Assembly (NCBI GenBank): GCA_026999335.1
Contig: JALTPW010000949.1
Coordinates: 1 to 44,631, forward strand
Direction of reading: 5' to 3'
Length of the DNA stretch: 44,631 nt
DNA from: Chromatiales bacterium
GTDB taxonomy: Bacteria > Pseudomonadota > Gammaproteobacteria > SZUA-152
Both the position numbers and the translations under genes were made by a program. The notes under the pieces were generated by a model that was not told the DNA's origin, did no database searches, and saw only the letters and a list, made by a program, of their open reading frames with translations. This document shows positions 1-39,872 of the stretch, piece by piece. The first letter of the stretch is position 1; every line of letters starts with the position of its first letter.

Positions 1-164
1 CTCGACGGACTGTAACAGCCAGTCCTGGCCGCCTTATACCGTGGCCATGTAACTGGCAATCAGGATTTTGATCGGTACTACGGCCAGCAGACTGACCAGA
101 TAAGGGGACTTACCACTGATCTACCAGATCATGGTAACCACTGATAAAGAGAGGATTAGACTGA

Positions 165-953
165 TCATAGTTGTTCGATATAGTTTTGTGTTTCTGCCCT
201 TACACGGTCCCAATACGTTTTATCCACGTAAAAAAAGTTTGCGTTGTTGTTCATGTGCCGTGTCCAGATCGGATTTATTGTAACCACAAATCGTTGCCGT
301 GTTGGATGGTGCATTGTTTCTTGTTTTTGGATAAAGACATCATCAAACCCTGCCTTGGCAAGCCAACTGGCAACGCATGATTCAGTAGGCCAATTATGAT
401 CAGTGATCGTTAACGCGCCTGTATAATGTCCACAGTCCAACGACAACGGGATCAAACGCTTACCAGGCAAAACCTGTGTTTCCAAGAACATGATCCCGTG
501 GCATACTTTGTGACAAGCTACTAATGACTGTATTGGATTTTGCAGATGGTAAAGCAAACCAAAATTAAAGATCACGTCCCACATCCTGCCGGTATTTGGC
601 AGTTCATAAACCGACATTTCCATAAACTCAACATTACTATCTAAGTTTGCGTGGTGAAACTTAAACACTTCGCATTTATCCTGTTGCTCAAGTTCCTTGA
701 TCTGATCAGGCGCACCACGTGGTCCCCAGTCATACTTGTCATAAGTACACACGTCAATCGCCGTTACTTGATCCGCACCGCCATACTGCTCTGACCAAAA
801 AGCAAAAAAACCGTCATTGGTAGCAATATCAAGGACACTAAAACCTTTTAGATCATTATTTCCAAGATCAAAAAAATTTAAGTTTACTGAATGATCCAGC
901 TTTCCGTCCCATACAGTGCCGTCAGGGTAAGTAATTTTATGGTGAAAATACAT
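165..953 (-). CDS. class I SAM-dependent methyltransferase (substrate unknown)
   Basis: 262-aa ORF; Rossmann motif I-like VLDIATNDGFFAF, acidic post-I AIDV, FNFGLLYHLQNP; GAGGG about 7 nt upstream of ATG; lies in the low-GC left module. Confidence 0.7.
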   Translation of the reverse strand: MYFHHKITYPDGTVWDGKLDHSVNLNFFDLGNNDLKGFSVLDIATNDGFFAFWSEQYGGADQVTAIDVCTYDKYDWGPRGAPDQIKELEQQDKCEVFKFHHANLDSNVEFMEMSVYELPNTGRMWDVIFNFGLLYHLQNPIQSLVACHKVCHGIMFLETQVLPGKRLIPLSLDCGHYTGALTITDHNWPTESCVASWLAKAGFDDVFIQKQETMHHPTRQRFVVTINPIWTRHMNNNANFFYVDKTYWDRVRAETQNYIEQL

Positions 954-1058
954 TTGCAGGCCCTCAATAGATCGTAAGCGTTAGTAAAATGTTAAGTGCG
1001 TTGATTATAAAAAGTGCCCATAAAATACGTTTACCATATCTATCATTATCATGGAATT

Positions 1059-1247
1059 TCATTTTTGTGTACTGACTTTTTGTATGATTTTGTCAAAAGG
1101 GATTGAATAAACAAACCCACCGCACCTGATACTTGCGTGTTTTTTGTTCATGCGCACGATCTCGCCAATTGTTTCTACTGGCTTAGATGCACCTGCCACG
1201 AACTTAAATCGTACCAAGTCACCTACAGAAAAACGGTTTTCACTCAT
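1059..1247 (-). CDS. hypothetical protein (62 aa)
   Basis: ORF track; same strand as neighbours; no recognisable motif. Confidence 0.45.
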   Translation of the reverse strand: MSENRFSVGDLVRFKFVAGASKPVETIGEIVRMNKKHASIRCGGFVYSIPFDKIIQKVSTQK

Positions 1248-1285
1248 CTATATAACCCTGTTATTAGTATTGCTAAAATAAAATT

Positions 1286-1309
1286 TAGGGAGGGTTTTAC
1301 CCCTCCCTA
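1286..1309 (-). terminator. perfect 9-bp stem / 6-nt loop hairpin with T-rich tail on the minus strand
   Basis: TAGGGAGGG-ttttac-CCCTCCCTA; on the minus strand followed by aaattttatttt; lies between two minus-strand ORFs. Confidence 0.5.
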
Positions 1310-1319
1310 TATAGCGGCC

Positions 1320-1517
1320 TTACTTCTGGACGATATACTCAGGGTGATCGGCCAATTCACACTGAGACACCTCGAAGGCATAGCTTTCACCCGGACGGCT
1401 CACCGTTACGTAAGGTGCCTTCTCGCAGGCGGGGAAGTCCTGCCCGATAGTGCTGCCAACGTATTGATTGCCGCCCATGAAAGCAACGGCGAAGATTGCA
1501 CCAGTGATCATCTCCAT
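1320..1517 (-). CDS. hypothetical small protein with hydrophobic N-terminus (65 aa)
   Basis: ORF 1320..1568 trimmed to internal ATG preceded by AAGGAGA; N-terminus MEMITGAIFAVAFMGG. Confidence 0.45.
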   Translation of the reverse strand: MEMITGAIFAVAFMGGNQYVGSTIGQDFPACEKAPYVTVSRPGESYAFEVSQCELADHPEYIVQK

Positions 1518-1596
1518 CTTATTTCTCCTTGCAGGGATCTCCTGCGGTTGTGTGTTGCGGGATTGCAACGCTTAAAAATATGCTCGTAGCCTATAC

Positions 1597-1809
1597 CTAA
1601 GGAGGGTTATATTTTCCACTATCATCTATGTGTTCATGTGGGATCTGTGCAATCGCGCGTTTATGCGCTTCTCCTGTCGCGATTGCTGTAGCCCTAAGCG
1701 CCTTTTTCACGGATTCAGAAATATCGTACCTTTCATTTATGGCTGCTATCGCCGATTCAGTTTCAAGATCAATCTTAGCGATAGCTTTAGCTTTTCCGTG
1801 TGTACTCAT
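1597..1809 (-). CDS. hypothetical protein (70 aa)
   Basis: ORF track; alanine/lysine-rich helical-looking sequence; same strand as neighbours. Confidence 0.5.
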   Translation of the reverse strand: MSTHGKAKAIAKIDLETESAIAAINERYDISESVKKALRATAIATGEAHKRAIAQIPHEHIDDSGKYNPP

Positions 1810-1812
1810 TTT

Positions 1813-1923
1813 TTATTCCAGCGGTTCAATGCGCTCTCCTATGTCATCCAGCCTGTAAAGCGCGTCAAGAACGCAGTATTTGCAGAAATCACCAGCGTTC
1901 CGTGTTGAGTCTATACCTACCAT
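1813..1923 (-). CDS. hypothetical small protein (36 aa, below ORF-track cutoff)
   Basis: ATG preceded by GAGG; MVGIDSTRNAGDFCKYCVLDALYRLDDIGERIEPLE; stop 3 nt before next start. Confidence 0.3.
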   Translation of the reverse strand: MVGIDSTRNAGDFCKYCVLDALYRLDDIGERIEPLE

Positions 1924-2048
1924 GACCTCTATTACTAATATACCTCTTTCTCCTTCTAAGGATGACCTTAATCTTCCTATATGCGAAGAATCCTTTATTT
2001 CATTCGTTTCGAGAATTTATTCACCGCAGCAGTCACAATAACGTTTGA

Positions 2049-2432
2049 TCATTTTTTCACCTCAATCACCTTCAAATAAATGTCATACATCGACAGGTAG
2101 TGGTCCAGCATCTCCCGATACTTCCCATCCCCCGGCCCCATGATCAACGCACAAGCCGGGTGCTTGCCAGTCATCAGGGCATACTATCGGGCCTGGCTAA
2201 TGCACTCCTTCCATTTCGGCGCAAAATCGAACTCCACCGCGAACCGGGCGGTAACACAATCTACTCTTCCCCCGCGCACACGTACCTCCATCTTGCCTCC
2301 CTGCGCGTTGCACCACTGAGTTTGATAGTGGCGTTCGTTGGCGGCCTGTACTGGCGTTATGTAGGACACTGCAATCAGCGATAGCGCAAAGGCAGTGCCG
2401 AGGATGGATAGCGCGATTTCTTTCACAGTCAT
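2049..2432 (-). pseudogene. nonsense-interrupted, diverged copy of the exported 127-aa protein gene at 39241..39624
   Basis: same frame, start and stop position as copy 2, but TAG at 2184-2186 where copy 2 has TGG; frame stays open and homologous after the stop. Confidence 0.7.
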
Positions 2433-2629
2433 CTCCTTACAAACATAAAATGTGTTCTCGGGCTGAACATCGCTCCTAGCGATCCTTTCGTTACGTCTTT
2501 GGCAAGTCCTTTTTTGCATAGCGCTCGTAATGTTGATAGCGATTCGCCCAGGTCATAAGCGCATTTTGGAACGCTACTGAGTTTGCCAAGCGCTCTGCGT
2601 TGCGCTTTTGTCAATGCGATCTCTTTCAT
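2429..2629 (-). CDS. hypothetical protein (66 aa), possibly winged-helix-like
   Basis: ORF track; stop overlaps next start (ATGA) with AAGGAG embedded in its 3' end. Confidence 0.6.
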   Translation of the reverse strand: MKEIALTKAQRRALGKLSSVPKCAYDLGESLSTLRALCKKGLAKDVTKGSLGAMFSPRTHFMFVRR

Positions 2630-2680
2630 GATTGCTTCTCGGTGCAGAGAGAAACTAAGCTATGTATCAACCTTTCAAGT

Positions 2681-2896
2681 TTAGTCATTATCATTCCCGT
2701 CAAACGTTGAGATCAGCATGGCCGCGTTGCGTATCCGCTCGTTATTCATGATTCGCGCATCCCGTCTGCCCGTGTTATATTCACTTTGCCGGAACCATGC
2801 GACGCTGTGCGGCGCATAACATCGCCAGTTCGATCCATCGCCGCCGAACTCATGCGCGGCCTTGACGGCCTCAACGATTGATCCCTTTTCAGTCAT
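2681..2896 (-). CDS. hypothetical acidic protein (71 aa)
   Basis: ORF 2681..2941 trimmed to MTEKGS start preceded by GGAGGCACC; overlaps upstream gene end by 8 nt. Confidence 0.55.
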   Translation of the reverse strand: MTEKGSIVEAVKAAHEFGGDGSNWRCYAPHSVAWFRQSEYNTGRRDARIMNNERIRNAAMLISTFDGNDND

Positions 2897-3053
2897 TTTT
2901 TGGTGCCTCCAATTTGTTGTATCTGGCCACGGCCTCCTCAATTAACTGAGAGGCAGGCCGGTCCTGTTCACGAAGCCACCGCACAATCCACGGGGCCAGC
3001 TTGTATGACACGGCGATCTTCCGCTCGCCGGGCGGGAGCTTGGGGCGAGGCAT
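2889..3053 (-). CDS. ribbon-helix-helix (CopG/Arc-like) DNA-binding protein (54 aa)
   Basis: ORF trimmed to MPRPKLPPGERKIAVSYKLAPWIVRWLREQDRPASQLIEEAV: beta-strand then two helices, typical RHH layout. Confidence 0.55.
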   Translation of the reverse strand: MPRPKLPPGERKIAVSYKLAPWIVRWLREQDRPASQLIEEAVARYNKLEAPKND

Positions 3054-3055
3054 GG

Positions 3056-3352
3056 TTACACCTCGCCATTCAGCACTTGCCACAGCGCCCACGCCTCGGG
3101 GCTGATGAATTTGGAGTATTCCAGATACCCCTTTGCCCGGCGAGCCGTGCAGGCTTCGCACTTGTGGCGCTCCGGCAACAGGTCGTAGAAGGTGGCCTTC
3201 ACGCGGTCGGCCTTCTTGCGGCGGTCGAAAGAAAACGGCTCCCGTGCGTAGCCTCGGCCTTTCAGCGGATTGGCCGGCAGGGGCGGCAGGTTGGTGATGC
3301 CGCCGTTGGCCTTGATCAGTTCAACGGCGACGGCTGCTTGTGTGGTGCTCAT
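3056..3352 (-). CDS. hypothetical protein (98 aa)
   Basis: ORF trimmed to MSTTQ start, which forms an ATGA overlap with the upstream stop. Confidence 0.6.
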   Translation of the reverse strand: MSTTQAAVAVELIKANGGITNLPPLPANPLKGRGYAREPFSFDRRKKADRVKATFYDLLPERHKCEACTARRAKGYLEYSKFISPEAWALWQVLNGEV

Positions 3353-3729
3353 AAGATGTCCTCCCAATTAGTCTTGACGAACCCCAGGTGGCGGAACACC
3401 GCCGTTTTGCGGACGTTGCCGTCCTCGTCCGTCACCTCAACGGACTCGCGGCGGCTGAACGCATAGACGGGCGTGACGTCCATGTGCCGGAGCACACGCT
3501 CCAGCTCGGGTATGAAGAAGGGTGCGCCGCCGATCATGGCGGCATCGGCCCCGGCGTCGCGGGCCATGCGGGCAACGGCGTGCGCCGTGGCGTTGAGATC
3601 GTCCGGCGTGGGGATCTCATCGAAAGTAAGCCAACGGGACAGCTCCCCCCGCTGTTCGTCGGGCAGGTCAACCACGCCCGCCTCGACTTGTTCAGGCGTG
3701 GCCTGGTGTTGGGTAAGGTTGATGATCAT
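3349..3729 (-). CDS. hypothetical protein (126 aa), Rossmann-like look
   Basis: ORF trimmed to MIINLTQHQATPEQ start (ATGA overlap with upstream stop); no secure family assignment. Confidence 0.6.
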   Translation of the reverse strand: MIINLTQHQATPEQVEAGVVDLPDEQRGELSRWLTFDEIPTPDDLNATAHAVARMARDAGADAAMIGGAPFFIPELERVLRHMDVTPVYAFSRRESVEVTDEDGNVRKTAVFRHLGFVKTNWEDIL

Positions 3730-4580
3730 TTCTGATCCTCCATTTTCAGTTTGCATGAATCCACATTTAGCCGGGGGCCGTCGTCAAGCTCTACCGGCAC
3801 GATCCCGTCAGTGCGGGTATAGACGACCGCACCGGCTTTGCCCTTGTATGGGCCGTCGAGGACGATCACACGGTCACCCTCCTTTGCTTCGAGGCCAGCA
3901 CGCGGCGACCAGTCCATGATGTGGTATTTGTTCATGTCGCCATAGTAGATGGCGTCGTCGCCAATCCGGCACAGCCACGCGTCGCCGCTCTCCGTCCAAA
4001 GGACGCCGTCCCAGCTAGCCGTCTTGTCGGCCGCCATAATGGGCTCTTGCCCGTCGGCGCAGATGAAGCCGAGCGAGCGGAAGGTGGAGCAGCCACCGGA
4101 ATAGCTGCCGTCAATCGAGGACGTGTGGCCCTCGTTGTGGCCGGCGATGCCGACCTGTACGACCGGCATACCCCGGCGGTCATACCACTTGGTTTCCCGC
4201 ACTTTTAGCGCGGGATTGTGCGGGTCTTTCCCGACCCGCACGGCCACCGCCCGGATGGCCGGGTCGATCTCCGGCTCCGGCTCCGGCTCCGGCTCGGGTT
4301 TGGCCTGGGCGGGCTCCGGTGCTTCGCCCAGCTCGGCGGCCAGTTCATCGACCGCCGCCGAGAAGGCCTGGTACTTGGCCTCAGCCGCGCCAGTACCGTC
4401 GCACAGGCGGTCCTCGGCGGCCTTATCTTCCAGCCGTGCCAGTACCTTACGGGCGCGGGCCAGCAGCGCAGGAGCCTCAATGGCCGCCCGCGTGACGATC
4501 CCCATGGACCGCGCACCGCGAACACTCGCGGCGGCGGCCCTGACGGCTTTGGCGCTTATTTGTGCTGCCGTCTTTTTCAT
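3726..4580 (-). CDS. hypothetical protein with PEPEPEPEPE linker and C-terminal KOW-like motif (284 aa; alternative start 4607)
   Basis: ORF 3726..4607; second ATG at 4580 has GAGGAA upstream; GDRVIVLDGPYKGKAGAVV resembles a KOW motif. Confidence 0.65.
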   Translation of the reverse strand: MKKTAAQISAKAVRAAAASVRGARSMGIVTRAAIEAPALLARARKVLARLEDKAAEDRLCDGTGAAEAKYQAFSAAVDELAAELGEAPEPAQAKPEPEPEPEPEIDPAIRAVAVRVGKDPHNPALKVRETKWYDRRGMPVVQVGIAGHNEGHTSSIDGSYSGGCSTFRSLGFICADGQEPIMAADKTASWDGVLWTESGDAWLCRIGDDAIYYGDMNKYHIMDWSPRAGLEAKEGDRVIVLDGPYKGKAGAVVYTRTDGIVPVELDDGPRLNVDSCKLKMEDQK

Positions 4581-4613
4581 GCCTTGTTCCTCTTGTTTGA
4601 TTGCCATGCTAAA

Positions 4614-4641
4614 AGTATATACCCTTATCTATAATTGTCAA
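4614..4641 (-). promoter_or_regulatory. near-consensus sigma70-type promoter reading leftward into the GC-rich cassette
   Basis: minus strand TTGACA (4641-4636), 16-nt spacer, TATACT (4619-4614); inside a 74-bp AT-rich gap. Confidence 0.55.
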
Positions 4642-4681
4642 TACTTTTTTGCAAATTATTAACCGCTATTTTTGTGTTGTT

Positions 4682-4879
4682 TTATTTCTTAGTGTTTTGT
4701 GTGGTTTTAGAGGCAACCGGCCACCAGCCGTCGCAGTTGTTGGGGTCCGTAGCCGGGCCGCGCTTGATGAAGAAGGACCAGGCTTGCATCGGGTCAGGGC
4801 GCGTGCCGCTGTCCAGGTGCCTGCGGCAACGCTTGCGATGCGGGCAGGTATCGAGGGCGCACATGTCATAGTCAGGCAT
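4682..4879 (-). CDS. hypothetical Cys/His-containing small protein (65 aa)
   Basis: ORF 4682..4888 trimmed to MPDYDMC start with GAGAGG 9 nt upstream. Confidence 0.5.
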   Translation of the reverse strand: MPDYDMCALDTCPHRKRCRRHLDSGTRPDPMQAWSFFIKRGPATDPNNCDGWWPVASKTTQNTKK

Positions 4880-5066
4880 GGCTATCATCCTCTCTGACGC
4901 TGCTCCACCACCACCATACGCCGCAGTAGTGGCAGAACAGTCGGGCGGTCGATCCCATCCGGGTATGCCCGCACCTTGGACACTTGTCGTACTCCCACAT
5001 CGTCGTAGCGTTGCCGGGAAGGTCTGCCGTTTTGCCGTCGGGTTTTAGCTTATGGTTGCTCGACAT
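4872..5066 (-). CDS. zinc-ribbon-like small protein (64 aa)
   Basis: CPRCG ... CHYCG pair of CxxC motifs; start uncertain (22-nt overlap with upstream gene). Confidence 0.5.
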   Translation of the reverse strand: MSSNHKLKPDGKTADLPGNATTMWEYDKCPRCGHTRMGSTARLFCHYCGVWWWWSSVREDDSHA

Positions 5067-5278
5067 TCAAACGCATCCAGTATATCTGGCAGATAGGTCC
5101 ACTTGTCTGGCAAGTCATCGTAAGCAAGTGGACAATCGTCTATGTCTGTCCAGACGCCTTCTGGCCAGTATAAAAGCACTTCGGGTATGCGCATTTCCCA
5201 CACGCACAGCACCGCGATGCAACTCTGTATCTCCGGCACGTGCGGCGGTTCAGTAATTGGTTTCCAGTCGGCTTTCAT
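5045..5278 (-). CDS. hypothetical protein, DUF551-like (from memory)
   Basis: 77 aa; N-terminal W-x-P-I-x-E-x-P pattern common in small phage early proteins. Confidence 0.5.
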   Translation of the reverse strand: MKADWKPITEPPHVPEIQSCIAVLCVWEMRIPEVLLYWPEGVWTDIDDCPLAYDDLPDKWTYLPDILDAFECRATIS

Positions 5279-5501
5279 CCCTACCTACCTCCCTTAATGA
5301 ATTTTCCCAACCAACGGACCTTGTAATAAAGTAGTGCTTCCCCCCTATGGCCATCCACATAGAAAAGTATTCATTTTTCTTAGGTTTTTTCTCGAATCCC
5401 CGCCATTCTCCGTCTGCGTCTAAAGCTATCCAGTTAACCCAATCGGGTGCTTCGTACTCTTTTCCGTCTATTGTTACTTTCTTTATTTCTTTTTTGCTCA
5501 T
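5250..5501 (-). CDS. hypothetical protein (83 aa)
   Basis: ORF 5250..5579 trimmed to MSKKEIKK start just after the upstream TAG. Confidence 0.55.
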   Translation of the reverse strand: MSKKEIKKVTIDGKEYEAPDWVNWIALDADGEWRGFEKKPKKNEYFSMWMAIGGKHYFITRSVGWENSLREVGRDESRLETNY

Positions 5502-5503
5502 AC

Positions 5504-5815
5504 CTAGTCCTTCATAGTTACGGCAGGAATAGCCGCCCATCCACTTCCTACCTCCGTCGTGACATAAGCGACGCTGCACCAGTCGCCTACTCTTAGGCGC
5601 GGATCAAACTGCAACATAGTCACGCTACCTAAATCGCTCCCTGAGCTTAGTTCAGGCGCATCGCAGGGTGGGACGGCAACGACCAGATTTCTTGCTGCTG
5701 GCTTTGCGACTACATAGGCGCGTGGGATCACATGGCGAATTTTCTTTACCGTGTATCCCTGTTCTTCATACCACTCACGGATAGCGCGGCGGGTTGCTCG
5801 TTCAAGTTTGGTCAT
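5504..5815 (-). CDS. hypothetical protein (103 aa), full-length MTKLERATR paralog
   Basis: ORF track; start overlaps upstream stop (TAATG). Confidence 0.6.
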   Translation of the reverse strand: MTKLERATRRAIREWYEEQGYTVKKIRHVIPRAYVVAKPAARNLVVAVPPCDAPELSSGSDLGSVTMLQFDPRLRVGDWCSVAYVTTEVGSGWAAIPAVTMKD

Positions 5816-6018
5816 TATCCGTCGTCCTCATCCAGCCATCGCTCGTATGCAGATACCGCGTTTACGTGTGCTTTTTCAAACTTTTCTATGCCTCCGTTCA
5901 CCTCGCGAAACTCTCGCCATACTTGCGCTTTAACAAGGTCAGAACTCGCTTCGGCGATCCTCCTTAGCAGCGCTAGTTCAGTGCTATAGATCAGTTCCTG
6001 GTCATCGTTATCGGTCAT
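5815..6018 (-). CDS. hypothetical acidic protein (67 aa)
   Basis: ORF 5815..6114 trimmed to MTDNDDQ start, 1 nt after the stop of the 34-aa ORF. Confidence 0.5.
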   Translation of the reverse strand: MTDNDDQELIYSTELALLRRIAEASSDLVKAQVWREFREVNGGIEKFEKAHVNAVSAYERWLDEDDG

Positions 6019-6019
6019 G

Positions 6020-6124
6020 TTATTTCTCGCGCGGAATCGCATGGTGGATTTTATTCGCCGTGTACACCTGCTCTTCACGCCATTCCCGGATTGCTTTTCT
6101 TGTTGCTCGTTCAAGTTTGGTCAT
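6020..6124 (-). CDS. 34-aa truncated paralog of the 5504..5815 protein (possibly a remnant)
   Basis: MTKLERATRKAIREWREEQVYTANKIHHAIPREK versus MTKLERATRRAIREWYEEQGYTVKKIRHVIPRAY; 25-nt exact DNA repeat at both starts. Confidence 0.35.
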   Translation of the reverse strand: MTKLERATRKAIREWREEQVYTANKIHHAIPREK

Positions 6125-6311
6125 TACTCACACCTATTTGCTCCCAAACCCTGTTTGCTTCCAAATTTAGAAACCAGCGATAAAAGTTGTAGGCTAATAT
6201 ACGTTGTTTTGATGTACGCATAACCTCGTCACCGCTAGCAAACCACCAGATAGTGAAGAAGGCGCGCCAATGATCTTTATACACACAAGATTTTTTGTGC
6301 TTATTCCTCAT
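6111..6311 (-). CDS. hypothetical protein (66 aa), weak call
   Basis: ORF 6111..6365 trimmed to MRNKHK (ATGA-type overlap with upstream stop); odd W-rich composition, AT-rich DNA. Confidence 0.3.
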   Translation of the reverse strand: MRNKHKKSCVYKDHWRAFFTIWWFASGDEVMRTSKQRILAYNFYRWFLNLEANRVWEQIGVSNDQT

Positions 6312-6534
6312 CCCCTTTTCCTCGCTCGTCAGTGAAGTCTCCTGGCTTGCATTGCAGCTCATCACCTACTTCACGACACAGACATAGGTGTATTGTCTCT
6401 GTGCCATAAGGCTCACCAAAAGCTGGGCACCAATCTCCACACCGGTCACCGTCGCAATGAATACAGAATTGGGATTTCATTTTCCCGGCCCGTTCTAACC
6501 ATAGCCAGCCATCCTCATCGATCTTGATTTTCAT
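6301..6534 (-). CDS. Cys-rich small protein, paralog A (77 aa)
   Basis: MKIKIDEDGWLWLERAG ... CGDWCPAFGEP; ends DFTDERGKGDEE. Confidence 0.6.
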   Translation of the reverse strand: MKIKIDEDGWLWLERAGKMKSQFCIHCDGDRCGDWCPAFGEPYGTETIHLCLCREVGDELQCKPGDFTDERGKGDEE

Positions 6535-6829
6535 TTTCACCCTCCCCAGCTTCCATTTTCTTCTCACCACGAAAATCTACAAGATCTTCTTTTGGGATAT
6601 AGAATGCGGTATTATGGCATAATGTTAACTGCACGCGCGGTACCAGTGTAGAATCTGTGTCATTATCAATAATCTCCTCAGAGAAGAACACAGGCTCGCC
6701 AAAATGCGGACACCAGTCCCCGCATGAAGTCGTCATCCCTATCGCAAATGAGAATGGGCATGTCTGCTGGCGGTAAATACCGGCTCTCTCTATGTGAAGC
6801 CTGCCGTCTTCGTCAATTAGTACCTTCAT
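6515..6829 (-). CDS. Cys-rich small protein, paralog B (104 aa)
   Basis: ORF 6515..7072 trimmed to MKVLIDEDGRLHIERAG ... CGDWCPHFGEP. Confidence 0.6.
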   Translation of the reverse strand: MKVLIDEDGRLHIERAGIYRQQTCPFSFAIGMTTSCGDWCPHFGEPVFFSEEIIDNDTDSTLVPRVQLTLCHNTAFYIPKEDLVDFRGEKKMEAGEGENENQDR

Positions 6830-7109
6830 CTTCTTTTCCTCGCTCGTCGGTGAAGTCGTTATCTCTATCTGGGCCGACGCTGTACTTACCATCTTGTGAT
6901 AGCTTGAGGTCCGGTATCGAGCAAACGTCGCCGGCCATCGTGTGCCACAGTAGGTGCTGGCGAATCTCGAAGGCCATAACTGACGCTGTTCGCCAGTTTG
7001 GTTTTCCATTGATAAGCATTTCATCCTTTGCCCGTTCATCACACCAGGCTTCCAGTTTCTCGATGCGATCAAGCAGTTCGTTTGCTAGCTTGGGACTTAT
7101 CTCTTTCAT
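6813..7109 (-). CDS. hypothetical protein (98 aa)
   Basis: ORF track; ends DFTDERGKEDEGTN, the same tail as paralog A. Confidence 0.6.
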   Translation of the reverse strand: MKEISPKLANELLDRIEKLEAWCDERAKDEMLINGKPNWRTASVMAFEIRQHLLWHTMAGDVCSIPDLKLSQDGKYSVGPDRDNDFTDERGKEDEGTN

Positions 7110-7687
7110 GCAGCATTTACCTCAATTATCTGCTCAATAATCGGACGCCATGTGCGCGACCACTCCAGTGCATCATCATCCATTGACGCGATGCGATCAT
7201 CATCGAAGCCCCGCCATTCTTCGATGCTGTGCTGTTCATAACCTATTGCCATTACATCCTTGGTTAAGACAATCGGCCAGGGGTCGGTCTGTATGGTCTT
7301 AATTTCTTTTCTATTGCCGATGACGTGGTGTAACTTAGCATCTCGTAGATCAGCATCGCGCAGACTGGCAAAGCCCAGATTAGCGTAGCGCAGATCGGCG
7401 CAGCTCAGATTGGCATCGCGCAGATCGGTGAAGCGCAGATCGGCAGAGTACAGTTCGACGTAGCTCAGATTGGCAGAGTACAGATCGACGTAGCGTAGAT
7501 CTGCATCGCGCAGATTGGCGTAGTTCAGATTGGCAGAGTGCAGATCGGCGTAGCGCAGATCGGTGAAGCGCAGATTGGCTCTTTCCGGTTTCGCGCCATA
7601 ATGGGCATGATGCGGTAACCCTCGCTCTGCCAGCCACGCTTGATGAGGTGTGTACCAGTCAAATTTATATAAGTGTGCCAATTTCAT
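7106..7687 (-). CDS. pentapeptide-repeat protein (193 aa)
   Basis: 17 uninterrupted A(D/N)LxX-type pentads from ANLRF to AKLHH, then a 60-aa non-repeat C-terminal domain. Confidence 0.85.
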   Translation of the reverse strand: MKLAHLYKFDWYTPHQAWLAERGLPHHAHYGAKPERANLRFTDLRYADLHSANLNYANLRDADLRYVDLYSANLSYVELYSADLRFTDLRDANLSCADLRYANLGFASLRDADLRDAKLHHVIGNRKEIKTIQTDPWPIVLTKDVMAIGYEQHSIEEWRGFDDDRIASMDDDALEWSRTWRPIIEQIIEVNAA

Positions 7688-7887
7688 TATTTATCACCTG
7701 TGTCTTCTAATCCGTGCCAGTAGAGAACGTCATAATCCTCATCCCACATCTCACTTAAAGCGTCTTTTACTAGGGCACCCTTTTGCTCATCGCTCTGTAG
7801 CTTCTGGTGTTTCGCTCGATGATGATCCATCTGGGCGCGATGGGTGGCGAAAATCTTTCCGCACGTCCTGCATTTAACGCCAGTCAT
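7687..7887 (-). CDS. small protein with a C2H2-type zinc-finger signature (66 aa)
   Basis: CRTCGKIFATHRAQMDHHRAKH fits C-x2-C-x12/13-H-x3/4-H; acidic C-terminus. Confidence 0.6.
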   Translation of the reverse strand: MTGVKCRTCGKIFATHRAQMDHHRAKHQKLQSDEQKGALVKDALSEMWDEDYDVLYWHGLEDTGDK

Positions 7888-8027
7888 AATTAAAACTTTC
7901 TTTTAGCCTTTTCGTTAATTAAGTAGAGGCGGCCTGTTGACTTGCATACCTGTACACGGACCCTAAGGCATGAGCATACCCGTCGTCTATCTGCTGCTTA
8001 AAGCCAGGCCAACAGACCACCATAAAC

Positions 8028-8104
8028 TGGTGCGGGTAGCAGGATTCGAACCTGCGACCACTCGCTCCCAAAGCGAGTGCTCTACCAGACTGAGCTATAC
8101 CCAC
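8028..8104 (-). tRNA. tRNA-Pro (anticodon UGG), CCA encoded
   Basis: hand-folded 77-nt cloverleaf: acceptor GTGGGTA/TACCCGC, anticodon stem CTCGC/GCGAG with loop TTTGGGA, T-loop GGTTCGAATCC, 3' ACCA. Confidence 0.85.
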
Positions 8105-8225
8105 GTGGTGCAGCTCCTGTGCCGGGCGGAGTGGTCATTCACATTTCGGCACAGACTTTAGGCGGCTGCTCACCTTTACGGGCAGGGCCGGGCGCTAATC
8201 CGGCTAACGGTTTGCCAACAGGCCC

Positions 8226-8306
8226 ACTTTCCTCCACCGTAAGGACTTCCGCACGTCTTGTCGCGGCCGCTGCGTTGCTTACGCGTTAGCTGTCCATAAA
8301 CTTAAT
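8226..8306 (-). repeat. 81-nt intergenic repeat element R1
   Basis: shares three blocks (25, 11 and 17 nt) with R2; on the minus strand it begins at the stop codon of the gene 8302..8493. Confidence 0.7.
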
Positions 8307-8493
8307 CTTCGTGGCGTATGGCTCCCCATCGACAATTTCTTACCCATGCGCTACGTCCTCCAAAATTCGGGTGATAAAATTCTTTTTTTATATCTTCGAC
8401 GGTTACATTCTTGCTACAGTTCCCCTCATATTGTTTGTGTGCGTGTCCAAGTACAATTTTTTCGACATTTATTTTCTTTTCCATTTTTTTCAC
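8302..8493 (-). CDS. hypothetical protein (63 aa), AT-rich insert between R2 and R1
   Basis: ORF track (GTG start; ATG 9 nt downstream); markedly AT-rich compared with flanks. Confidence 0.45.
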   Translation of the reverse strand: MKKMEKKINVEKIVLGHAHKQYEGNCSKNVTVEDIKKEFYHPNFGGRSAWVRNCRWGAIRHED

Positions 8494-8513
8494 CCTAATT
8501 CAATGCCCCCTAC

Positions 8514-8594
8514 ACTTTCCTCCACCGTAAGGGCTTCCACTATATTGTGGCCGCTGCGTGTCTGCTTTCCACGCCGCCTGTCCATAAACTTAAT
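8514..8594 (-). repeat. 81-nt intergenic repeat element R2
   Basis: same length and block structure as R1; begins at the stop codon of the gene 8590..8814. Confidence 0.7.
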
Positions 8595-8814
8595 TGGGCA
8601 ATTCTTCGCGGTGTCGCCAGAGGAATTCAATGGCTTTACCTGCCGAATTGTACTCGTCCAGGTTCCAGTATTGCAGCAGGACGCTATCCCCATCTACGCC
8701 GATAGCCACAAGCCCCATAAATAGCCTCGTTAGTTGTTCGCCGAACAAAAGTTCGTCGAGGTTGTCGGCTTGAGTTGTAGCCATTACGAGTCGTTCGAGT
8801 TCTTTTTTGGTCAT
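8590..8814 (-). CDS. hypothetical protein (74 aa)
   Basis: ORF track; GAGGGAG upstream of ATG. Confidence 0.6.
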   Translation of the reverse strand: MTKKELERLVMATTQADNLDELLFGEQLTRLFMGLVAIGVDGDSVLLQYWNLDEYNSAGKAIEFLWRHREELPN

Positions 8815-8827
8815 ATTACTCCCTCCA

Positions 8828-9421
8828 TTATTTACGCATCGGCATCACGCCGCCGCGGCCGCCTTGGAATCGGAATACATACAATGACCTGGGATCGTTT
8901 TTGTCAGACTGCACAATCTTTGCGCCCAGGTCGTTGAGGATGGCGACGTATTTGTAATTCATATATCCGCCGAGGACGGGGACGCTGCCATAATTTACAT
9001 ATTCCCATCCATTACCCTGACAATCCAAACAATCTACATCGTCGCCACCTTTAACAACGCCATCACCGCAGCAGGTATTACAGTCGTGCAGATGGCCGAG
9101 ATCACATTCAACTTCTCCAGCACCTTTGCAATCTGGGCATCGTCCCATACGCCCTGAGCCGCCGCATTCCTTGCAGTACTCTTTCTCTGGCTCTTCAACA
9201 TCGTCAAGAGTTGTATAGCCTTTGTACGTTGCGTTTATAACATCAACAATTTTGTGAATTTTATCGTAGTCGGGGCCGATGCCGAGATCGCCGTTCCAAT
9301 CCTTCGTCATAATGATAATCGCGCCATCCGACGCGCAAAAGTATCCGTCACACTCGAACGGCTTTTTGAGATAATCCCGCAACTCGCTTTCAGGGGCGCA
9401 GTATTTTGTCAAATCGATCAT
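8828..9421 (-). CDS. protein with DnaJ-type cysteine-rich zinc-finger region (197 aa)
   Basis: CKECGGSG, CPDCKGAG, CNTCCGDG, CLDCQGNG (CxxCxGxG repeats); start set to ATG at 9421 with GGAGGG upstream. Confidence 0.7.
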   Translation of the reverse strand: MIDLTKYCAPESELRDYLKKPFECDGYFCASDGAIIIMTKDWNGDLGIGPDYDKIHKIVDVINATYKGYTTLDDVEEPEKEYCKECGGSGRMGRCPDCKGAGEVECDLGHLHDCNTCCGDGVVKGGDDVDCLDCQGNGWEYVNYGSVPVLGGYMNYKYVAILNDLGAKIVQSDKNDPRSLYVFRFQGGRGGVMPMRK

Positions 9422-9422
9422 T

Positions 9423-9572
9423 TCACCCTCCAAACAAATTGACTTTCAGCCATGCCAGCCCGACTCCGATACCCGTTCCGGCAAGCCAGATTGCGATCCC
9501 GATCAACATCAGGGCAACCAGCAAACCGAAAGCAGGCAAGTCGTCGTCCATACCAAATGGCCTGTGGCTCAT
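9423..9572 (-). CDS. small single-pass membrane protein (49 aa, below ORF-track cutoff)
   Basis: ATGA overlap with exonuclease stop; MSHRPFGMDDDLPAFGLLVALMLIGIAIWLAGTGIGVGLAWLKVNLFGG; ends 1 nt before next ATG. Confidence 0.55.
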   Translation of the reverse strand: MSHRPFGMDDDLPAFGLLVALMLIGIAIWLAGTGIGVGLAWLKVNLFGG

Positions 9573-10192
9573 GCCGCATCCATAATTTTGATTTGCCTGA
9601 ACACCTCATCACGATCCCGAATCACTGCGGCGAGCTGGATTTTTAGTCCGCGAACGAAATCGGGGTCAGGAAACTGGCGGATCACGAGCATCGGAAGGTG
9701 TGGATGATAGAATAACGAATCACACCATTCACGCTCGCAAATGAATATCTGCCCCTGGGTCTGAGCAATATATTTAGGCAGCGTCTTCTGGTGCTTGGCA
9801 AAGTAAAGCAGCGCCTTGACATGTGCCTTTGTCTCCAGACATTTGATCTCAACCAACCCATCTGCGCCAACAAGACCGTCCGGCGAACAGCCATAACGCT
9901 GGAGATCGTCAGTGACAAATCCGACGGGCTCGACCTCATGATATGCCAGCTCATAAGCCATTATGGCTTCCGCTTCCATCTCAACGCCTCGCTGCGTCGA
10001 GGCGTTTCCGCCGAATGACGATAGTGGCCGCCCGGCGTACTTCTCCGCCGCCAGAAGTTCGGCGTAGTCCTTCATGGACTTCGACGGCTCGCCCGTACTT
10101 GTGACGAGCTTAGAGAACTCGCTTGCGGTTGGCATCCCTGCCCGGAGCGCAAACCACTCATCCGACCGCTGCTCAACGTCGTGGACGATCAC
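9569..10192 (-). CDS. YqaJ-type viral recombinase exonuclease
   Basis: QRSDEWFALRAGMPTASEFSKL and GCSPDGL...GLVEIKC motifs; directly downstream of the RecT gene. Confidence 0.85.
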   Translation of the reverse strand: MIVHDVEQRSDEWFALRAGMPTASEFSKLVTSTGEPSKSMKDYAELLAAEKYAGRPLSSFGGNASTQRGVEMEAEAIMAYELAYHEVEPVGFVTDDLQRYGCSPDGLVGADGLVEIKCLETKAHVKALLYFAKHQKTLPKYIAQTQGQIFICEREWCDSLFYHPHLPMLVIRQFPDPDFVRGLKIQLAAVIRDRDEVFRQIKIMDAA

Positions 10193-11034
10193 TTTTTCGC
10201 CTTCCGCTTGATCGTGGCGTCAATCATCCTTAACACATCGGGCAAGGCGGGCTTTGCGATCTGTTCGATAGAGCTTGCCCCCAATGACTTTTTCAGCCAC
10301 GCGAGGAACTTCGCAAGATCAATATCGTTATCCGTGATCTTTGCGTGAATGGCGAGCGCCTCATCCTCTGTGATGCGCTGTGTATCCGCAATAACCTCGC
10401 TTTGTCCAGTAACATCGATGATCTTGCCTTCCATTTCTTCGGCTGTGGGTGCTGCGCCAACTTCAGGCCATGCTTTCCGTAATGCCTGCGCTTCGGCACA
10501 CTTAGCAAGCTGGCCTCTTGGGCGTTTTCTCCACATACGATTCGGCGCATCGGACTTACTGCTATCAGAAGCGTAATTCTCAAGCCAGTATTCTTGCGCT
10601 GTAAATTCTACAATCCGTCCATCGACCATTTTAGAAGCGACAATCCTGCACCACTCTGGATACACAACGTTGACGCGGTTGCCGTTTTTATCCGTAAAAG
10701 CTCCTGTTTTATCCGGCCCAAACTCTGGGGCGCTGATCCCCGCATATGTCCCAGATCGATCCGCCTGAATGCGGTAAAGACCGATTCCCGGCATAATCAC
10801 ATCTCGCCACTCGCTGCGGCCTGTTTGCGTATTTTTTACGCTCATGGGGACAATATGGACAGGCTTTTGCATAGGATCGAGCTTTGCCGCAGTGCAATAC
10901 TGCATCACCATGCGCACGGAGTCAGCGGCAGCGCCGGGGTATAAACTTGATTGCAAGACGCTGATTATTTCATCATCAGACATCGCGGGTGACTTATCAC
11001 TCTTCTTTTTTTCAGTCAATTCGCTCATTACCAA
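10189..11034 (-). CDS. recT: RecT-family single-strand annealing protein
   Basis: 281 aa; RecT-like core (GIGLYRIQADRSGTYAGI, QLAKCAEAQALRKAWPE); paired with YqaJ exonuclease through an ATGA-type overlap. Confidence 0.8.
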   Translation of the reverse strand: MVMSELTEKKKSDKSPAMSDDEIISVLQSSLYPGAAADSVRMVMQYCTAAKLDPMQKPVHIVPMSVKNTQTGRSEWRDVIMPGIGLYRIQADRSGTYAGISAPEFGPDKTGAFTDKNGNRVNVVYPEWCRIVASKMVDGRIVEFTAQEYWLENYASDSSKSDAPNRMWRKRPRGQLAKCAEAQALRKAWPEVGAAPTAEEMEGKIIDVTGQSEVIADTQRITEDEALAIHAKITDNDIDLAKFLAWLKKSLGASSIEQIAKPALPDVLRMIDATIKRKAKK

Positions 11035-11257
11035 CCCCTAATATCGTGACTTTTGTCCCAGGCGAAAACCTGTCGTCGTTTTCAACTGGCGCGACGTGTA
11101 AAATTATCTTCGTGTATTTCTTCATTCTGTCAGCCCGGTAGATTGTCGCCGGGACACCAGACTTTTCCTTGTGCCATTTTGCCCGACAACTTGCAGAGCA
11201 AAACCGCTGACTGCTTCTTGTGCGTTCGCACACCGCTCCGCAGTATTCGCATTTCAT
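11012..11257 (-). CDS. zinc-ribbon small protein (81 aa)
   Basis: MKCEYCG ... CSASC; start trimmed from 11272. Confidence 0.5.
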   Translation of the reverse strand: MKCEYCGAVCERTRSSQRFCSASCRAKWHKEKSGVPATIYRADRMKKYTKIILHVAPVENDDRFSPGTKVTILGVGNERID

Positions 11258-11547
11258 TCGGCGGCATCCCATGCCAGATCCCAGACGTATGTTTTGACCT
11301 GTTCACGGAGGGTTAGTCCGGCGGTGAAGGGATCGGCGTTGACCATCGCCATAAGCTTGTCATCATCCATCTCCGTGATCGCCTCGCTGATCGTAGCCGG
11401 ATCGGTGATTAGGTCTTGGTAGATTGATTCGGCCCGCGCTTGTCTGGCGGCGTCAAGATAGTCTTCATGGTCAAGCATCGCATCAGCATGACGGATGGGG
11501 TCGGCGATATCCGGGCAACAGATATAAGCGGCGTCTTTGAATTTCAT
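11254..11547 (-). CDS. hypothetical acidic protein (97 aa)
   Basis: ORF track; ATGA-type overlap with the next gene. Confidence 0.6.
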   Translation of the reverse strand: MKFKDAAYICCPDIADPIRHADAMLDHEDYLDAARQARAESIYQDLITDPATISEAITEMDDDKLMAMVNADPFTAGLTLREQVKTYVWDLAWDAAE

Positions 11548-11622
11548 CTCAAAACCTCAGATCAACGGTAAGAAGAACAACAAGAGAGGCGATCCAGATA
11601 GCATCGGCCAGATTGATCATGG

Positions 11623-12264
11623 TCAAAACTTATAATTAAAGCTGATCGCATAATCCAGCGAACTAAAATTCCTGTCGATGCCCTGCTCCCACCATCCAAC
11701 ACCAGCATCTAACCAGACCTGGCGATCAACACGCAGGTATTCAGATATACGCATCGACCGATAACCAAGAGAAAAGCCAACGCTGAGCCGCCCGGTGATA
11801 GGCTTGTCGATCTCAATCCCAATCGACGCGGCGATAGTGTCATCGACTTCGATCAAATATGAATCGAAGTTAAACGGTGTCCCTTCCATCGAAAAGCCAT
11901 AGCGGGAATTGAAGTAGTAATAGAGACCTTCGTTCCAGTCATGCCGCCCTGATGGATTGGTCGAGACGAAGTAATAACCCGCCTGCGCGAACAGGCGGAC
12001 GTGGGGGGTGAGTTCGTGCGTGATGCCGACGCCAAGCCCGGTCATCTTCAAATCGTAAGCGCCCCAGATCGGGACGATCCGAGTTTGTTCCTGCGAGATA
12101 AACAAATAGCTATCGTCTTTGTGGTAACTGATCTGAACCCCATACCAGGCCGTAGTCTGATAAGCATCATCGTCTGTTAGGCGAGAATGTGAGATCAAAT
12201 CTACCGACACTTCGGCCTGAGCTACAGAAGTCAGAAGAAGTAAAACAAGTGTCATCCATTTCAT
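11623..12264 (-). CDS. outer-membrane beta-barrel protein with signal peptide
   Basis: MKWMTLVLLLLTSVAQA signal peptide; alternating aromatic/hydrophobic strands; C-terminal ...SFNYKF with terminal Phe. Confidence 0.7.
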   Translation of the reverse strand: MKWMTLVLLLLTSVAQAEVSVDLISHSRLTDDDAYQTTAWYGVQISYHKDDSYLFISQEQTRIVPIWGAYDLKMTGLGVGITHELTPHVRLFAQAGYYFVSTNPSGRHDWNEGLYYYFNSRYGFSMEGTPFNFDSYLIEVDDTIAASIGIEIDKPITGRLSVGFSLGYRSMRISEYLRVDRQVWLDAGVGWWEQGIDRNFSSLDYAISFNYKF

Positions 12265-19102: not shown

Positions 19103-20638
19103 ATGGCTATCGCCCATGTCTCAACGGTCGGATATAACAGTACGTCCGACAGGGTAACGTGGAATATCGGCAGCATTGTTATTGTGTCTGCGGGTGTTGA
19201 CCGCCTCATGGTAGTTGACGCCACTACGGAGGACTCAAGCGGCGGTGTCGATATTGTTGTGCAGAGTGTTGTACTAGACCCGGCAGGGTTGGCGATCAAT
19301 CTTACCAAAGCGATAGAAGATCAGATCGTCACCTCTGGCACATGGGGCAATTCATCGTCCATGTGGTATTTGTTGGATGCGGACTATCCAGCAGACGGAA
19401 CATATGACCTTGAGATTACTTATGCCGGATCTGTCACGGAGATAGGCGCGTCTGTTAGCCAATATACTGGCGTTAAACAGGGGCCTCCAGAAGTAACTGC
19501 TTCTAATACAGCGCTATCAACCACAACTGTATCTACTTCTATTACTACCCTAACTGATGGCGCATGGGTGATGGACACAGCCTGTCATGGGGACGGGGTG
19601 GCAACATGGTCGGCAGATGTGGCGCAAAATGAGCGCGATGTAAGGGATGCTGATTCTCATTGGCATGGCGCAAGTGACAAGTCAGTGGCAACTGCTGGGG
19701 CTGCTACAATGTCATGGACGGCAAGCGCATCTGTTAATAGGTTAGTGGGTGTTGCGGCGGCATGGGCTCCCGCATCTGGGTCGGGGGCAGCGCTACAAGG
19801 CGCAGCGTCTATAAGCATTCTTGCCGCGGCGGCTTTAACGACCGGGATCAACCTTGCCGCCGCAGTCTCGATCACTGACACGGCTAGCGCCGATCTCACA
19901 ACCGGGATCAACCTTGAGTCGGCGACAACCATTAGCGTTCAGGCTGGGGCTGATTTATCCACAGATATTCGATTATCTGCGGATACCAGCATCTCAGATC
20001 TCGTATCAGCCGACCTGACTACAGGGATCGCATTAGTCGCTAATACCAGCGAGAGCTTTGCTGTTACGGCGGATCTGACGGCAGGAGGTGGAGCCGCAGC
20101 CCTAGAGGGCGCGACGAATATTACCAATACCACCGTCGCGGACCTGACCACAGGAATCCCGTTAAACGGCGATACCAGCCTGACGGTATTCTCGGGCGCC
20201 GATCTGACTACTCAGATCCAGATGGCGGCCGCTGCTAGCGAGACAATCCAGACCGCGGCAGATCTCAGCACTGGGATCTCTCTGGATGGGGCGACAAGCG
20301 TCACATTCCAGACGGACGCCTCACTTGAAGCTCCGATCAATCTCGCTGGGAATGTTGGCATAACGGTCCAATCAGCCGCTGACTTGACGACAGGCATAGA
20401 ACTGGCGTCTGACGCGGTTATCTCGGTTGATTCAGATGCAGATTTAACTACTGCGATCAACCTGGCCGGCGGGACAAATATCACCTTCCAGGCGACGGCG
20501 CTACTCACCGTCGGCGAAGTTGTGGTCCCAGAGAGCCAGATCTACGCCATCGAGGCAGAAAACCGAACCTATGCAATCGCAGAAGATGATCGGACCTATG
20601 CGATTGAGAGTGAGAACAGAACCTACCCCGTAACGTAA
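19103..20638 (+). CDS. tandem-repeat protein (511 aa), probable fibre or beta-solenoid-like virion protein
   Basis: about 230-aa N-terminal domain, about 12 x 20-aa repeats (consensus xSIxVxxxADLTTGIxLxxx), then 3 x E-x-E-N-R-T-Y-A-I. Confidence 0.7.
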   Translation: MAIAHVSTVGYNSTSDRVTWNIGSIVIVSAGVDRLMVVDATTEDSSGGVDIVVQSVVLDPAGLAINLTKAIEDQIVTSGTWGNSSSMWYLLDADYPADGTYDLEITYAGSVTEIGASVSQYTGVKQGPPEVTASNTALSTTTVSTSITTLTDGAWVMDTACHGDGVATWSADVAQNERDVRDADSHWHGASDKSVATAGAATMSWTASASVNRLVGVAAAWAPASGSGAALQGAASISILAAAALTTGINLAAAVSITDTASADLTTGINLESATTISVQAGADLSTDIRLSADTSISDLVSADLTTGIALVANTSESFAVTADLTAGGGAAALEGATNITNTTVADLTTGIPLNGDTSLTVFSGADLTTQIQMAAAASETIQTAADLSTGISLDGATSVTFQTDASLEAPINLAGNVGITVQSAADLTTGIELASDAVISVDSDADLTTAINLAGGTNITFQATALLTVGEVVVPESQIYAIEAENRTYAIAEDDRTYAIESENRTYPVT

Positions 20639-21039: not shown

Positions 21040-21474
21040 ATGGCAGAAGCAAGCGATTACCTCGAAAACCAGCTCTCCGATCACATCTTTCGGACGGCGA
21101 GTTTCACCAAGCCAACCGGACTTTATTACGCGCTCTATACCGCCTCACCGGGAGACGCTGGGGGCGGGACAGAAGTTTCCGGCGGGTCTTATGCCCGGGT
21201 AAACCTGGCTCCGGCTGATGCCAATTACAAGGGCACCCACGGGACAACTACAGGCGCATCGAGCGGCACAGGCGGGCAGATCTCCAATGCCTCAGCGATT
21301 ACCTTTCCTGCTCCGACAGCGAACTGGGGAACGGTCACAGATATGGCTGTACTGGATGCCTCGACGGGCGGTAATTTCCTGGTTTACACCCCGCTGACCA
21401 CCTCGAAGACCATCAACAACGGCGATGCTGCCCCGTCCTTCGCGGTGGATGCCTTTACCAACACGATTGCCTGA
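21040..21474 (+). CDS. conserved phage virion-associated (fibre-like) protein, function uncertain
   Basis: 144 aa; LENQLSDHIFR...LYYALYTASPGD...EVSGGSYARV...ITFPAPTANWGTVT pattern seen in phage tail/fibre neighbourhoods (from memory). Confidence 0.55.
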   Translation: MAEASDYLENQLSDHIFRTASFTKPTGLYYALYTASPGDAGGGTEVSGGSYARVNLAPADANYKGTHGTTTGASSGTGGQISNASAITFPAPTANWGTVTDMAVLDASTGGNFLVYTPLTTSKTINNGDAAPSFAVDAFTNTIA

Positions 21475-21779
21475 TGCCGAGGGAATTCACCAAAGACCCT
21501 GATGCTGTCCTATCGTATAAGTTCGACTGGAAGGCGAAGACGAACGGATCAGGGCCAAGTGACTGGCTTGCCTCTGGGGTTACGATTGCAAGCCAAACAA
21601 TTACAGCGGACAGCGGGATCACCGTGGACAGCAGCAGCATTACGGATACAAGCACTTCGGTGACTGTTACCCTGTCGGGAGGGACGGCAGGTAACAGCTA
21701 CAAGGTAGCATGTAAGATCACAACGTCTGACGGGCAGACGGATGAGCGAAGTATTATGATCAATATTATCGAACGCTAA
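21474..21779 (+). CDS. conserved small phage protein, Ig-like look, function uncertain
   Basis: 101 aa; KDPDAVLSYKFDW ... TVTLSGGTAGNSYKVACKITTSDGQTDERSI. Confidence 0.55.
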   Translation: MPREFTKDPDAVLSYKFDWKAKTNGSGPSDWLASGVTIASQTITADSGITVDSSSITDTSTSVTVTLSGGTAGNSYKVACKITTSDGQTDERSIMINIIER

Positions 21780-22126
21780 TGCCGGTCAGGCCGCCAACAA
21801 TTTGCCCGAGATGCGGGGTAACAGTACCTAATAGGGGTTACTGCGAGAAACACAGGAAAGAAAGATCGCGAAAAATTGACGAGGCCAGACCAAGCGCAGC
21901 GAAGCGAGGGTATGATCACGCATGGCGCAAGATCAGGGCGTCAGTATTGAGCAGGCATCCTTTATGCCTTTTCTGCGAGGAAGAAGGAAAGACCACCGCG
22001 GCCACTGAGGTGGACCACATAGATGGAAACAGCAGGAACAATAACCCCAACAACCTGAGACCCTTATGTAAGTCATGCCACAGTCGCAGGACAATCAGAG
22101 ACCAAGGCATGCTTAAGAAAAAATAA
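21779..22126 (+). CDS. HNH endonuclease
   Basis: CLFCEEEGK...EVDHIDGNSRNNNPNNLRPLCKSCHSRRT; located next to the terminase genes. Confidence 0.85.
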   Translation: MPVRPPTICPRCGVTVPNRGYCEKHRKERSRKIDEARPSAAKRGYDHAWRKIRASVLSRHPLCLFCEEEGKTTAATEVDHIDGNSRNNNPNNLRPLCKSCHSRRTIRDQGMLKKK

Positions 22127-22219
22127 TGCAGGGGAAGGGGGGGTCAAATCTCTGACGCTTTGGCGTTATAGACCGACCGACCCCATAAATTTTCACGCCG
22201 ACAGTTAGGTTTTTAAGCA

Positions 22220-26477: not shown

Positions 26478-26555
26478 GAAACGAGCGAGGTGGTGGGGTA
26501 GCCAGTTCCGTTGAACCTACACCCCAATACTTAACTGCAGAACGAGGGCAAAAAA

Positions 26556-39185: not shown

Positions 39186-39240
39186 CCGAGTTATCCGCTC
39201 AGCTTGCGTACCACGCGTTACCTTATGGTGTCTAGCCAAA

Positions 39241-39821: not shown

Positions 39822-39872
39822 GATTGCTTCTCGGTGCAGAGAGAAACTAAGCTATGTATCAACCTTTCAAGT

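Follow-up and report, generated by a model that had tools for sequence, protein, structure and literature searches.

A 5.4-kb repeat in an over-length phage contig is most probably an assembly product of two co-occurring mosaic phages

Gene content and geometry of the repeat

The contig JALTPW010000949.1, which was analysed in its entirety (44,631 bp, referred to below as the window), carries the genes of an HK97-like phage and a direct repeat of 5.4 kb, the two copies of which lie exactly 37,192 bp apart. The phage encoded by one such period, from 7440 to 44631, is called here phage B, and the first 2,388 bp are attributed below to a second, related phage, called phage A. The repeat most probably arose when an assembly walked around one phage genome through a bubble formed by these two strains, and is then not a physical duplication.

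The non-redundant unit from 7440 to 44631 (37,192 bp) contains one set each of replication, packaging, head, tail and lysis genes, and every function occurs once per period. The period is therefore one complete genome of an HK97-like phage, as had been proposed in the initial annotation of this DNA, and 7440-44631 is a clean single genome of phage B with a circular map. The early operon is transcribed leftwards (~2049-12264) and comprises g127, which encodes a small secreted or membrane protein, the genes of a KOW-motif protein and a pentapeptide-repeat protein, tRNA-Pro(UGG), and the genes of a YqaJ exonuclease and RecT. The rightward arm starts with a Cro-like regulator, followed by an O-like replication initiator, a SNF2-type helicase, a DNA methylase and the packaging and head genes; after the capsid gene come a gp10-like tail component, the tape-measure protein and the fibre genes, and the lysis cassette forms the end of the arm. 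The packaging and head module (21779-27785) holds HNH endonuclease, small terminase (TerS), large terminase (TerL), portal, S78 protease and HK97-fold capsid genes, all present and in that order, with Pfam matches to PF01844, PF05119 (Terminase_4), PF03354/PF20441, PF04860 (E = 3e-117), PF04586 and PF05065. On the forward strand the HNH endonuclease gene is found at 21779-22126, the P27-type small terminase gene at 22220-22603 and the large terminase gene at 22600-24258, each identified by Pfam. By analogy with known HK97-like phages, a candidate cos site may lie near 22127-22219, and the contig is continuous across this region (22.1-22.2 kb).

The lysis cassette of phage B (37292-39185, forward strand) consists of the genes of a lysozyme (37292-37717), small membrane proteins, a protein of 175 or 183 aa, a Rz-like spanin (38672-39031) and a Rz1/LysC-like lipoprotein with a lipobox (38907-39185), all in the same orientation. 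It lies directly left of the second copy of the repeat, as the initial annotation had it, and directly adjoins g127, which is convergent to it.

When the window was compared against itself at an offset of 37,192, the segment 2389-7439 was identical to 39581-44631, with no mismatch in 5,051 bp, and 2049-2388 differed from 39241-39580 by substitutions at 33 of 340 positions (90.3% identity) without any insertion or deletion. The step from 90% to 100.000% identity is abrupt and falls at 2389. To the left of 2048 the identity to the counterpart at +37,192 drops to ~25%, which is the random level. A repeat search of the window returned the same period. These results confirm the coordinates reported earlier (2049-7439 repeated at 39241-44631, effectively identical from 2389) and the statement that the 2,048-bp left flanks of the two copies are unrelated. 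The contig amounts to 1.20 periods, with a mean 21-mer frequency of 1.13. A chance origin of the repeat is excluded.

The perfectly identical part of the first copy (2389-7439) covers leftward early genes, namely the start of g127, small open reading frames (ORFs), the KOW-motif gene, paralogous small genes and part of the pentapeptide-repeat gene. Its counterpart (39581-44631) reaches the final base of the contig; the window thus ends within the second copy, as noted before, and the length of the repeat is unbounded. The right end at 44631, which corresponds to 7439, falls in the 15-nt periodic array of the pentapeptide-repeat gene and inside a 23-nt exact internal repeat (7418-7440 = 7553-7575). 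The first copy starts at 2049 and not at 1, so that the repeat is absent from the left terminus of the contig. The repeat is present in the sequence, but probably not as two copies on one physical DNA molecule.

The divergent 340 nt (2049-2388, reverse strand) are the last 340 nt of g127 in its phage A version and are 90% identical to the second copy. Third codon positions account for 27 of the 33 substitutions, and five amino acids differ, one of the differences being a nonsense codon. As judged from this substitution pattern, the stretch represents real divergence under purifying selection. The nonsense codon in the phage A gene (TGG to TAG, 2184-2186, compared with 39376-39378) leaves a product of 82 aa instead of 127 aa. 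In the 135 nt downstream of it the substitutions are almost all at third positions, which suggests that the gene was inactivated very recently, that the codon stems from an error of assembly or sequencing, or that it is read through.

Independent contigs and a second phage

Independent contigs were found by exact-protein look-up in the ENA assembly ERZ23495177 (BioSample SAMN12239308) and among the Logan contigs of run SRR10312490, whereas the exact junction patterns were not found in IMG/VR, the JGI metagenome contigs or the GTDB genomes. Five of these contigs match the window at 100% identity. Two are from ERZ23495177: L001 (scaffold_52710, 2,682 bp), which corresponds to window 1-2443 and covers the left junction of the first copy (2048/2049), and L021, which corresponds to 6360-9394. 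The other three are from SRR10312490: L002 (4-1954), L020 (35308-37806) and L103 (39089-41664), the last of which spans the left junction of the second copy (39240/39241). L002 runs into a Nextera adapter after position 1954, and the data are therefore short-read Illumina data, which do not allow junctions 37 kb apart to be linked. The cassette of phage A (in L002) and the junction from the lysis cassette of phage B to g127 (in L103) occur in one and the same read set, SRR10312490. Judging from these assembled sequences, both left junctions are real but belong to different genomes.

Three of the contig ends lie exactly one k-mer from positions at which the two phages start or cease to be identical. 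L001 ends at 2443, 55 nt after the last substitution between A and B (2388), which fits a k-mer size of 55 in a SPAdes-type scaffold; it also carries a 10-N scaffold gap exactly at the window start. One end of L103 lies at 39089, 30 nt before A and B diverge at 39119, and L020 ends at 37806, 30 nt into the first exact run shared by A and B (37777-37814). With a k of 31, which we take to be that of Logan, 30 nt equals k-1. These three independent contig ends fall to the base at the predicted branch points, which shows that A and B occur together and that their graphs join there. The node at which the two arms merge is the 55-nt segment 2389-2443, where L001 ends, and the identity of A and B rightwards from 2389 is established for at least these 55 nt, to 2443. 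On the other side, the last shared node before the divergence at 39119 is a 43-nt exact run (39076-39118). The arm of phage B in between (39119-39580, 462 bp) consists of the end of the LysC gene, an intergenic spacer of 55 bp and the terminal 340 nt of intact g127, and includes the junction 39240/39241.

The phage A side of this divergence is found in L104 (scaffold_21010 of ERZ23495177, 4,838 bp), in which the 43-nt run lies at 4141-4183. From holin to spanins, L104 has 92.5% DNA identity to window 37723-39127 and then diverges completely. Its fibre protein is only 33% identical to that of the window, and its endolysin is an Amidase_3 protein (1880-2446), compared with the lysozyme at window 37292-37717. 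The endolysin types are thus swapped between the co-occurring phages A and B inside an otherwise conserved lysis cassette. Next to the endolysin, the two phages share a protein of 183 aa (counted from the first ATG; 175 aa in the gene-finder call) with 100% identity over 169 aa.

Past the spanins, L104 continues in the gene order of L003, a relative from IMG/VR (IMGVR_UViG_3300028399_000007, 62 kb), towards the cassette found at the left end of the window. In L003 the fibre is followed by the lysis cassette, small genes over ~1.5 kb, homologues of window 1018-2041, g127 and the early genes. In addition, the 229 bp by which L001 extends past window position 1 match L003 2624-2400 at 90%. Because of this synteny of L104 with L003 and the match of the L001 extension, window 1-2388 appears to belong to phage A, and to be neither host DNA nor a variant end of phage B.

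The accessory cassette of phage A (1-2048, reverse strand, 43% GC) lies downstream of g127 and is 100% identical to L001 and L002. It encodes a predicted S-adenosylmethionine-dependent methyltransferase (165-953, reverse strand; Pfam Methyltransf_9, E = 2.5e-11; DUF1698-like) and contains three small ORFs on the same strand (1059-1247, 1320-1517 and 1597-1809). The methyltransferase gene is missing from L003, which has 267 bp at this place compared with ~1 kb in the window, so that it resembles a moron, an accessory gene inserted into the cassette. Between the spanin genes and g127, the cassette of phage A measures at least about 3.5 kb.

A search of IMG/VR with TerL yielded no complete genome that could serve for a size comparison. 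The contig of L003 was not among the TerL matches, but L105 (IMGVR_UViG_3300028399_000055, 10.4 kb) was; its TerL is 97% identical to that of the window and it comes from the same IMG metagenome as L003 (3300028399). Head and lysis modules therefore seem to have been reassorted among these phages. A search with the protein on the spanin side found only the contig of L003 again, and the relatives of RecT in IMG/VR were too widespread to be informative.

Origin of the repeat

The repeat can very probably be accounted for as follows. The sample would hold two related mosaic HK97-like phages, A and B, that share de Bruijn nodes, namely the 43-mer in the Rz1/LysC gene and the sequence from 2389 rightwards, and between these shared nodes the graph would open into a bubble whose A arm is long and whose B arm measures 462 bp. 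The path of the assembler would start inside the A arm (1-2388), enter the shared sequence, circle phage B once via the cos region, take the B arm (39119-39580) and re-enter the shared sequence, to halt in the 15-nt tandem-repeat array at 44631. The 5,051 identical bases would then be a single collapsed graph segment, or its consensus, emitted twice, and their perfect identity would not be independent evidence for two physical copies. The left copy would not be terminal because the path enters via the alternative arm of the bubble. The initial annotation had argued that the differing flanks rule out both a plain terminal overlap and an assembly wrap-around. The former conclusion stands, but the latter does not, as a wrap-around can proceed via the two arms of a strain bubble. 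Among the explanations then put forward, the evidence favours a chimeric assembly of two co-occurring strains, whereas tandem prophages or a heterogeneous concatemer received no positive support.

Several points weigh against an assembly walk-around. The path itself is inferred, and most assemblers avoid crossing 5 kb twice. The ENA assembly crosses 7439 unbroken (in L021), so that its graph leaves the right end of the contig unexplained, and why the path should halt at 44631 on the second pass but not on the first is likewise unexplained. That SAMN12239308, SRR10312490 and the source of the window are the same sample is inferred from 12.5 kb of zero-mismatch matches and not from metadata. Finally, a real A-B heterodimer would give identical short contigs.

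Two published observations on phage assemblies resemble the present case. The CheckV study describes k-mer-sized terminal repeats (55, 77 and 99 bp) left by assemblers on circular templates, as well as some contigs, a minority, in which one genome occurs repeatedly and which are called "probably artifacts of metagenomic assembly" (PMC8116208). Like those over-length contigs, the present one is a metagenome contig of 1.20 genomes, assembled from short reads, with a perfect repeat and a period equal to a full phage gene set. Unlike them, it has an overlap of 5.4 kb instead of k-mer size, and its first copy is preceded by 2,048 bp of foreign and 340 bp of divergent sequence; as its left copy is not terminal, a test for direct terminal repeats (DTRs) that compares the start of a contig with its end would miss it. 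The Phables study describes variant bubbles in phage assembly graphs, which assemblers mishandle by picking one arm or ending contigs at the branch, and resolves them by flow decomposition (PMC10104058). As in those bubbles, the genomes of co-occurring variants have most nodes in common and are distinguished by alternative arms, and three contig ends lie one k-mer from the divergence. The published cases, however, mostly concern genomes of >99% identity, whereas here the alternative arms hold a multi-kb cassette, with non-homologous fibre and endolysin genes upstream. The present contig combines the over-length repeat artefact with the variant bubble.

The most direct alternative is a real head-to-tail heterodimer, in which A and B, or recombinants of them, would lie in tandem on one molecule, whether in a double lysogen, in a multimeric plasmid-like prophage or in a co-integrate produced by homologous recombination between co-infecting relatives. 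Both junctions do occur in the sample, the phage encodes a RecT/YqaJ pair able to make such joints, and the deposited contig has this very structure. We nevertheless consider a heterodimer improbable. Short reads are unable to link the two junctions, in the independent assemblies the two arms fall on different contigs with ends at graph nodes, and the A arm leads to a different fibre and endolysin, so that the dimer needs two quite different phages to be 100% identical over 5 kb. In tandem prophages and polylysogens, such as dilysogens of lambda or arrays of CTXphi, an integrase is required, every junction must carry an att core and host DNA must flank the array. The window resembles them in its direct phage repeat with a period of one genome and in the differing sequence to the left of each copy, but not in these attributes. 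No integrase or recombinase family was matched among the ~50 ORFs scanned, which included every ORF of at least 250 aa; self-comparison and repeat search revealed no att-like short direct repeat marking 2048/2049 and 39240/39241 beyond the gene homology itself; and no host DNA was found at the contig ends, both of which are phage DNA. That A and B, without an integrase, are joined head to tail on one replicon, either as a RecT/YqaJ-mediated co-integrate or as a plasmid-like prophage heterodimer, seems to us quite unlikely. Were the joined structure physically real, the contig would be a snapshot of mosaic exchange in progress.

It is very doubtful that the contig reflects a concatemer, replicative or packaged, of one phage, with the left 2.4 kb as a rare recombinant end. 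Phages with cos ends replicate via concatemers, the closure of the circle in the assembly requires reads across the cos region, and terminal repeats may stem from concatemer intermediates, as noted in the CheckV paper (PMC8116208); a concatemer would, however, place the lysis cassette to the left of both copies, contrary to what is observed. In HK97-like phages, moreover, packaging by HNH, TerS and TerL gives unit-length virion DNA. Short reads cannot reveal that a concatemer was sampled, and the A arm is already indicated as a distinct genome by L104 and L003. A genome of at least ~42.6 kb with a T5-like long DTR of at least 5.4 kb would account for the presence of two identical copies, each at least 5 kb long, and for the position of one at the end of the contig, but is hardly credible. 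The left copy lies inside the contig and starts with 340 nt of only 90% identity, the repeat runs off the contig so that its length is unbounded, the packaging genes are of the HK97/cos type and not of the long-DTR type, and one period already makes up a complete gene set.

Two checks that had been suggested earlier, junction PCR and read depth over the shared part, cannot separate these models. PCR is uninformative because both junctions are real and independently assembled (2048/2049 in L001 and 39240/39241 in L103), and depth because it is summed over the shared part under every model.

Further features of phage B

Phage B resembles the HK97-like cos siphoviruses in the gene order of its packaging and head module. 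It differs from them in that no integrase was found despite the presence of a Cro-like regulator and RecT/YqaJ, and in that proteins similar to gp80 and gp77 of phage GP4 are encoded upstream of HNH; the lysis cassette after the tail genes is also counted among the differences. The region 21040-21779 (forward strand) encodes proteins homologous to gp80, a fibre protein of podophage GP4 (E = 1.5e-44), and to its fibre-tail adaptor gp77 (E = 6e-23), which lie upstream of the HNH and terminase genes and far from the main tail module with the tape-measure protein. A 511-aa ORF (19103-20638, forward strand), flanked by the late-regulator region and the packaging genes, has no Pfam or PHROG match; 28-nt repeats occur within it at 19829, 19889 and 20438. 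In the place expected for a repressor there is a divergent ORF of 213 aa (11623-12264). No partition or protelomerase gene was recognised in the unit 7440-44631.

No close relative of the phage was found among 50,697 GenBank phage records or in E. coli genomes, where only the tRNA matched. This tRNA-Pro (anticodon UGG, 8028-8104, reverse strand) gave the sole Rfam match in the window, and no other stretch matched GenBank phages at the DNA level, the matches being to cyanophage and Xanthomonas phage tRNA-Pro genes. It was considered as an integration site and rejected, as it lies inside the unit, has no adjacent integrase gene, and its 3' end is not repeated elsewhere in the window. Around the two junctions, scans for promoters and terminators yielded no signal above background.

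The early region contains several other repeated elements. The pentapeptide-repeat protein (193 aa, 7106-7687, reverse strand; Pfam PF00805, E = 2e-27) is encoded in the early leftward operon by a DNA array with a 15-nt period. Proteins of this kind can mimic DNA (Qnr/MfpA type), and by analogy an anti-defence role is conceivable for it. A GC-rich island at 3000-5000, which recurs at 40192-42192, has 62% GC compared with ~51% for the phage. The 293-aa protein encoded at 3726-4607 carries a KOW motif at its C-terminus, as well as a (Pro-Glu)n run that derives from 12-nt repeats at 4242-4309; no family match explained its function. Two adjacent small genes on the reverse strand (5504-5815 and 5815-6114) are tandem paralogues that share a 99-nt stretch with 78% identity (5719-5817 and 6028-6126), and a pair of 32-nt repeats is found at 6308 and 6826.

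Implications for the contig and for the phages

The value of these observations lies mainly in quality control. The contig should be trimmed to 7440-44631 (37,192 bp), and phage A should be credited with its first 2,388 bp, since the untrimmed contig leads to a wrong genome size and to wrong gene counts and completeness estimates, and makes any annotation as tandem prophage or terminal redundancy erroneous. It illustrates a failure mode that tests for terminal repeats miss, namely an over-length contig in which the overlap is hidden behind the foreign arm of a strain bubble. As to biology, the repeat is most probably not a real physical structure. What the contig brings to light is two co-occurring mosaic relatives that share 100%-identical early sequence and differ in their receptor-binding fibre, the type of endolysin and a methyltransferase-bearing cassette, differences that are ordinary phage mosaicism.

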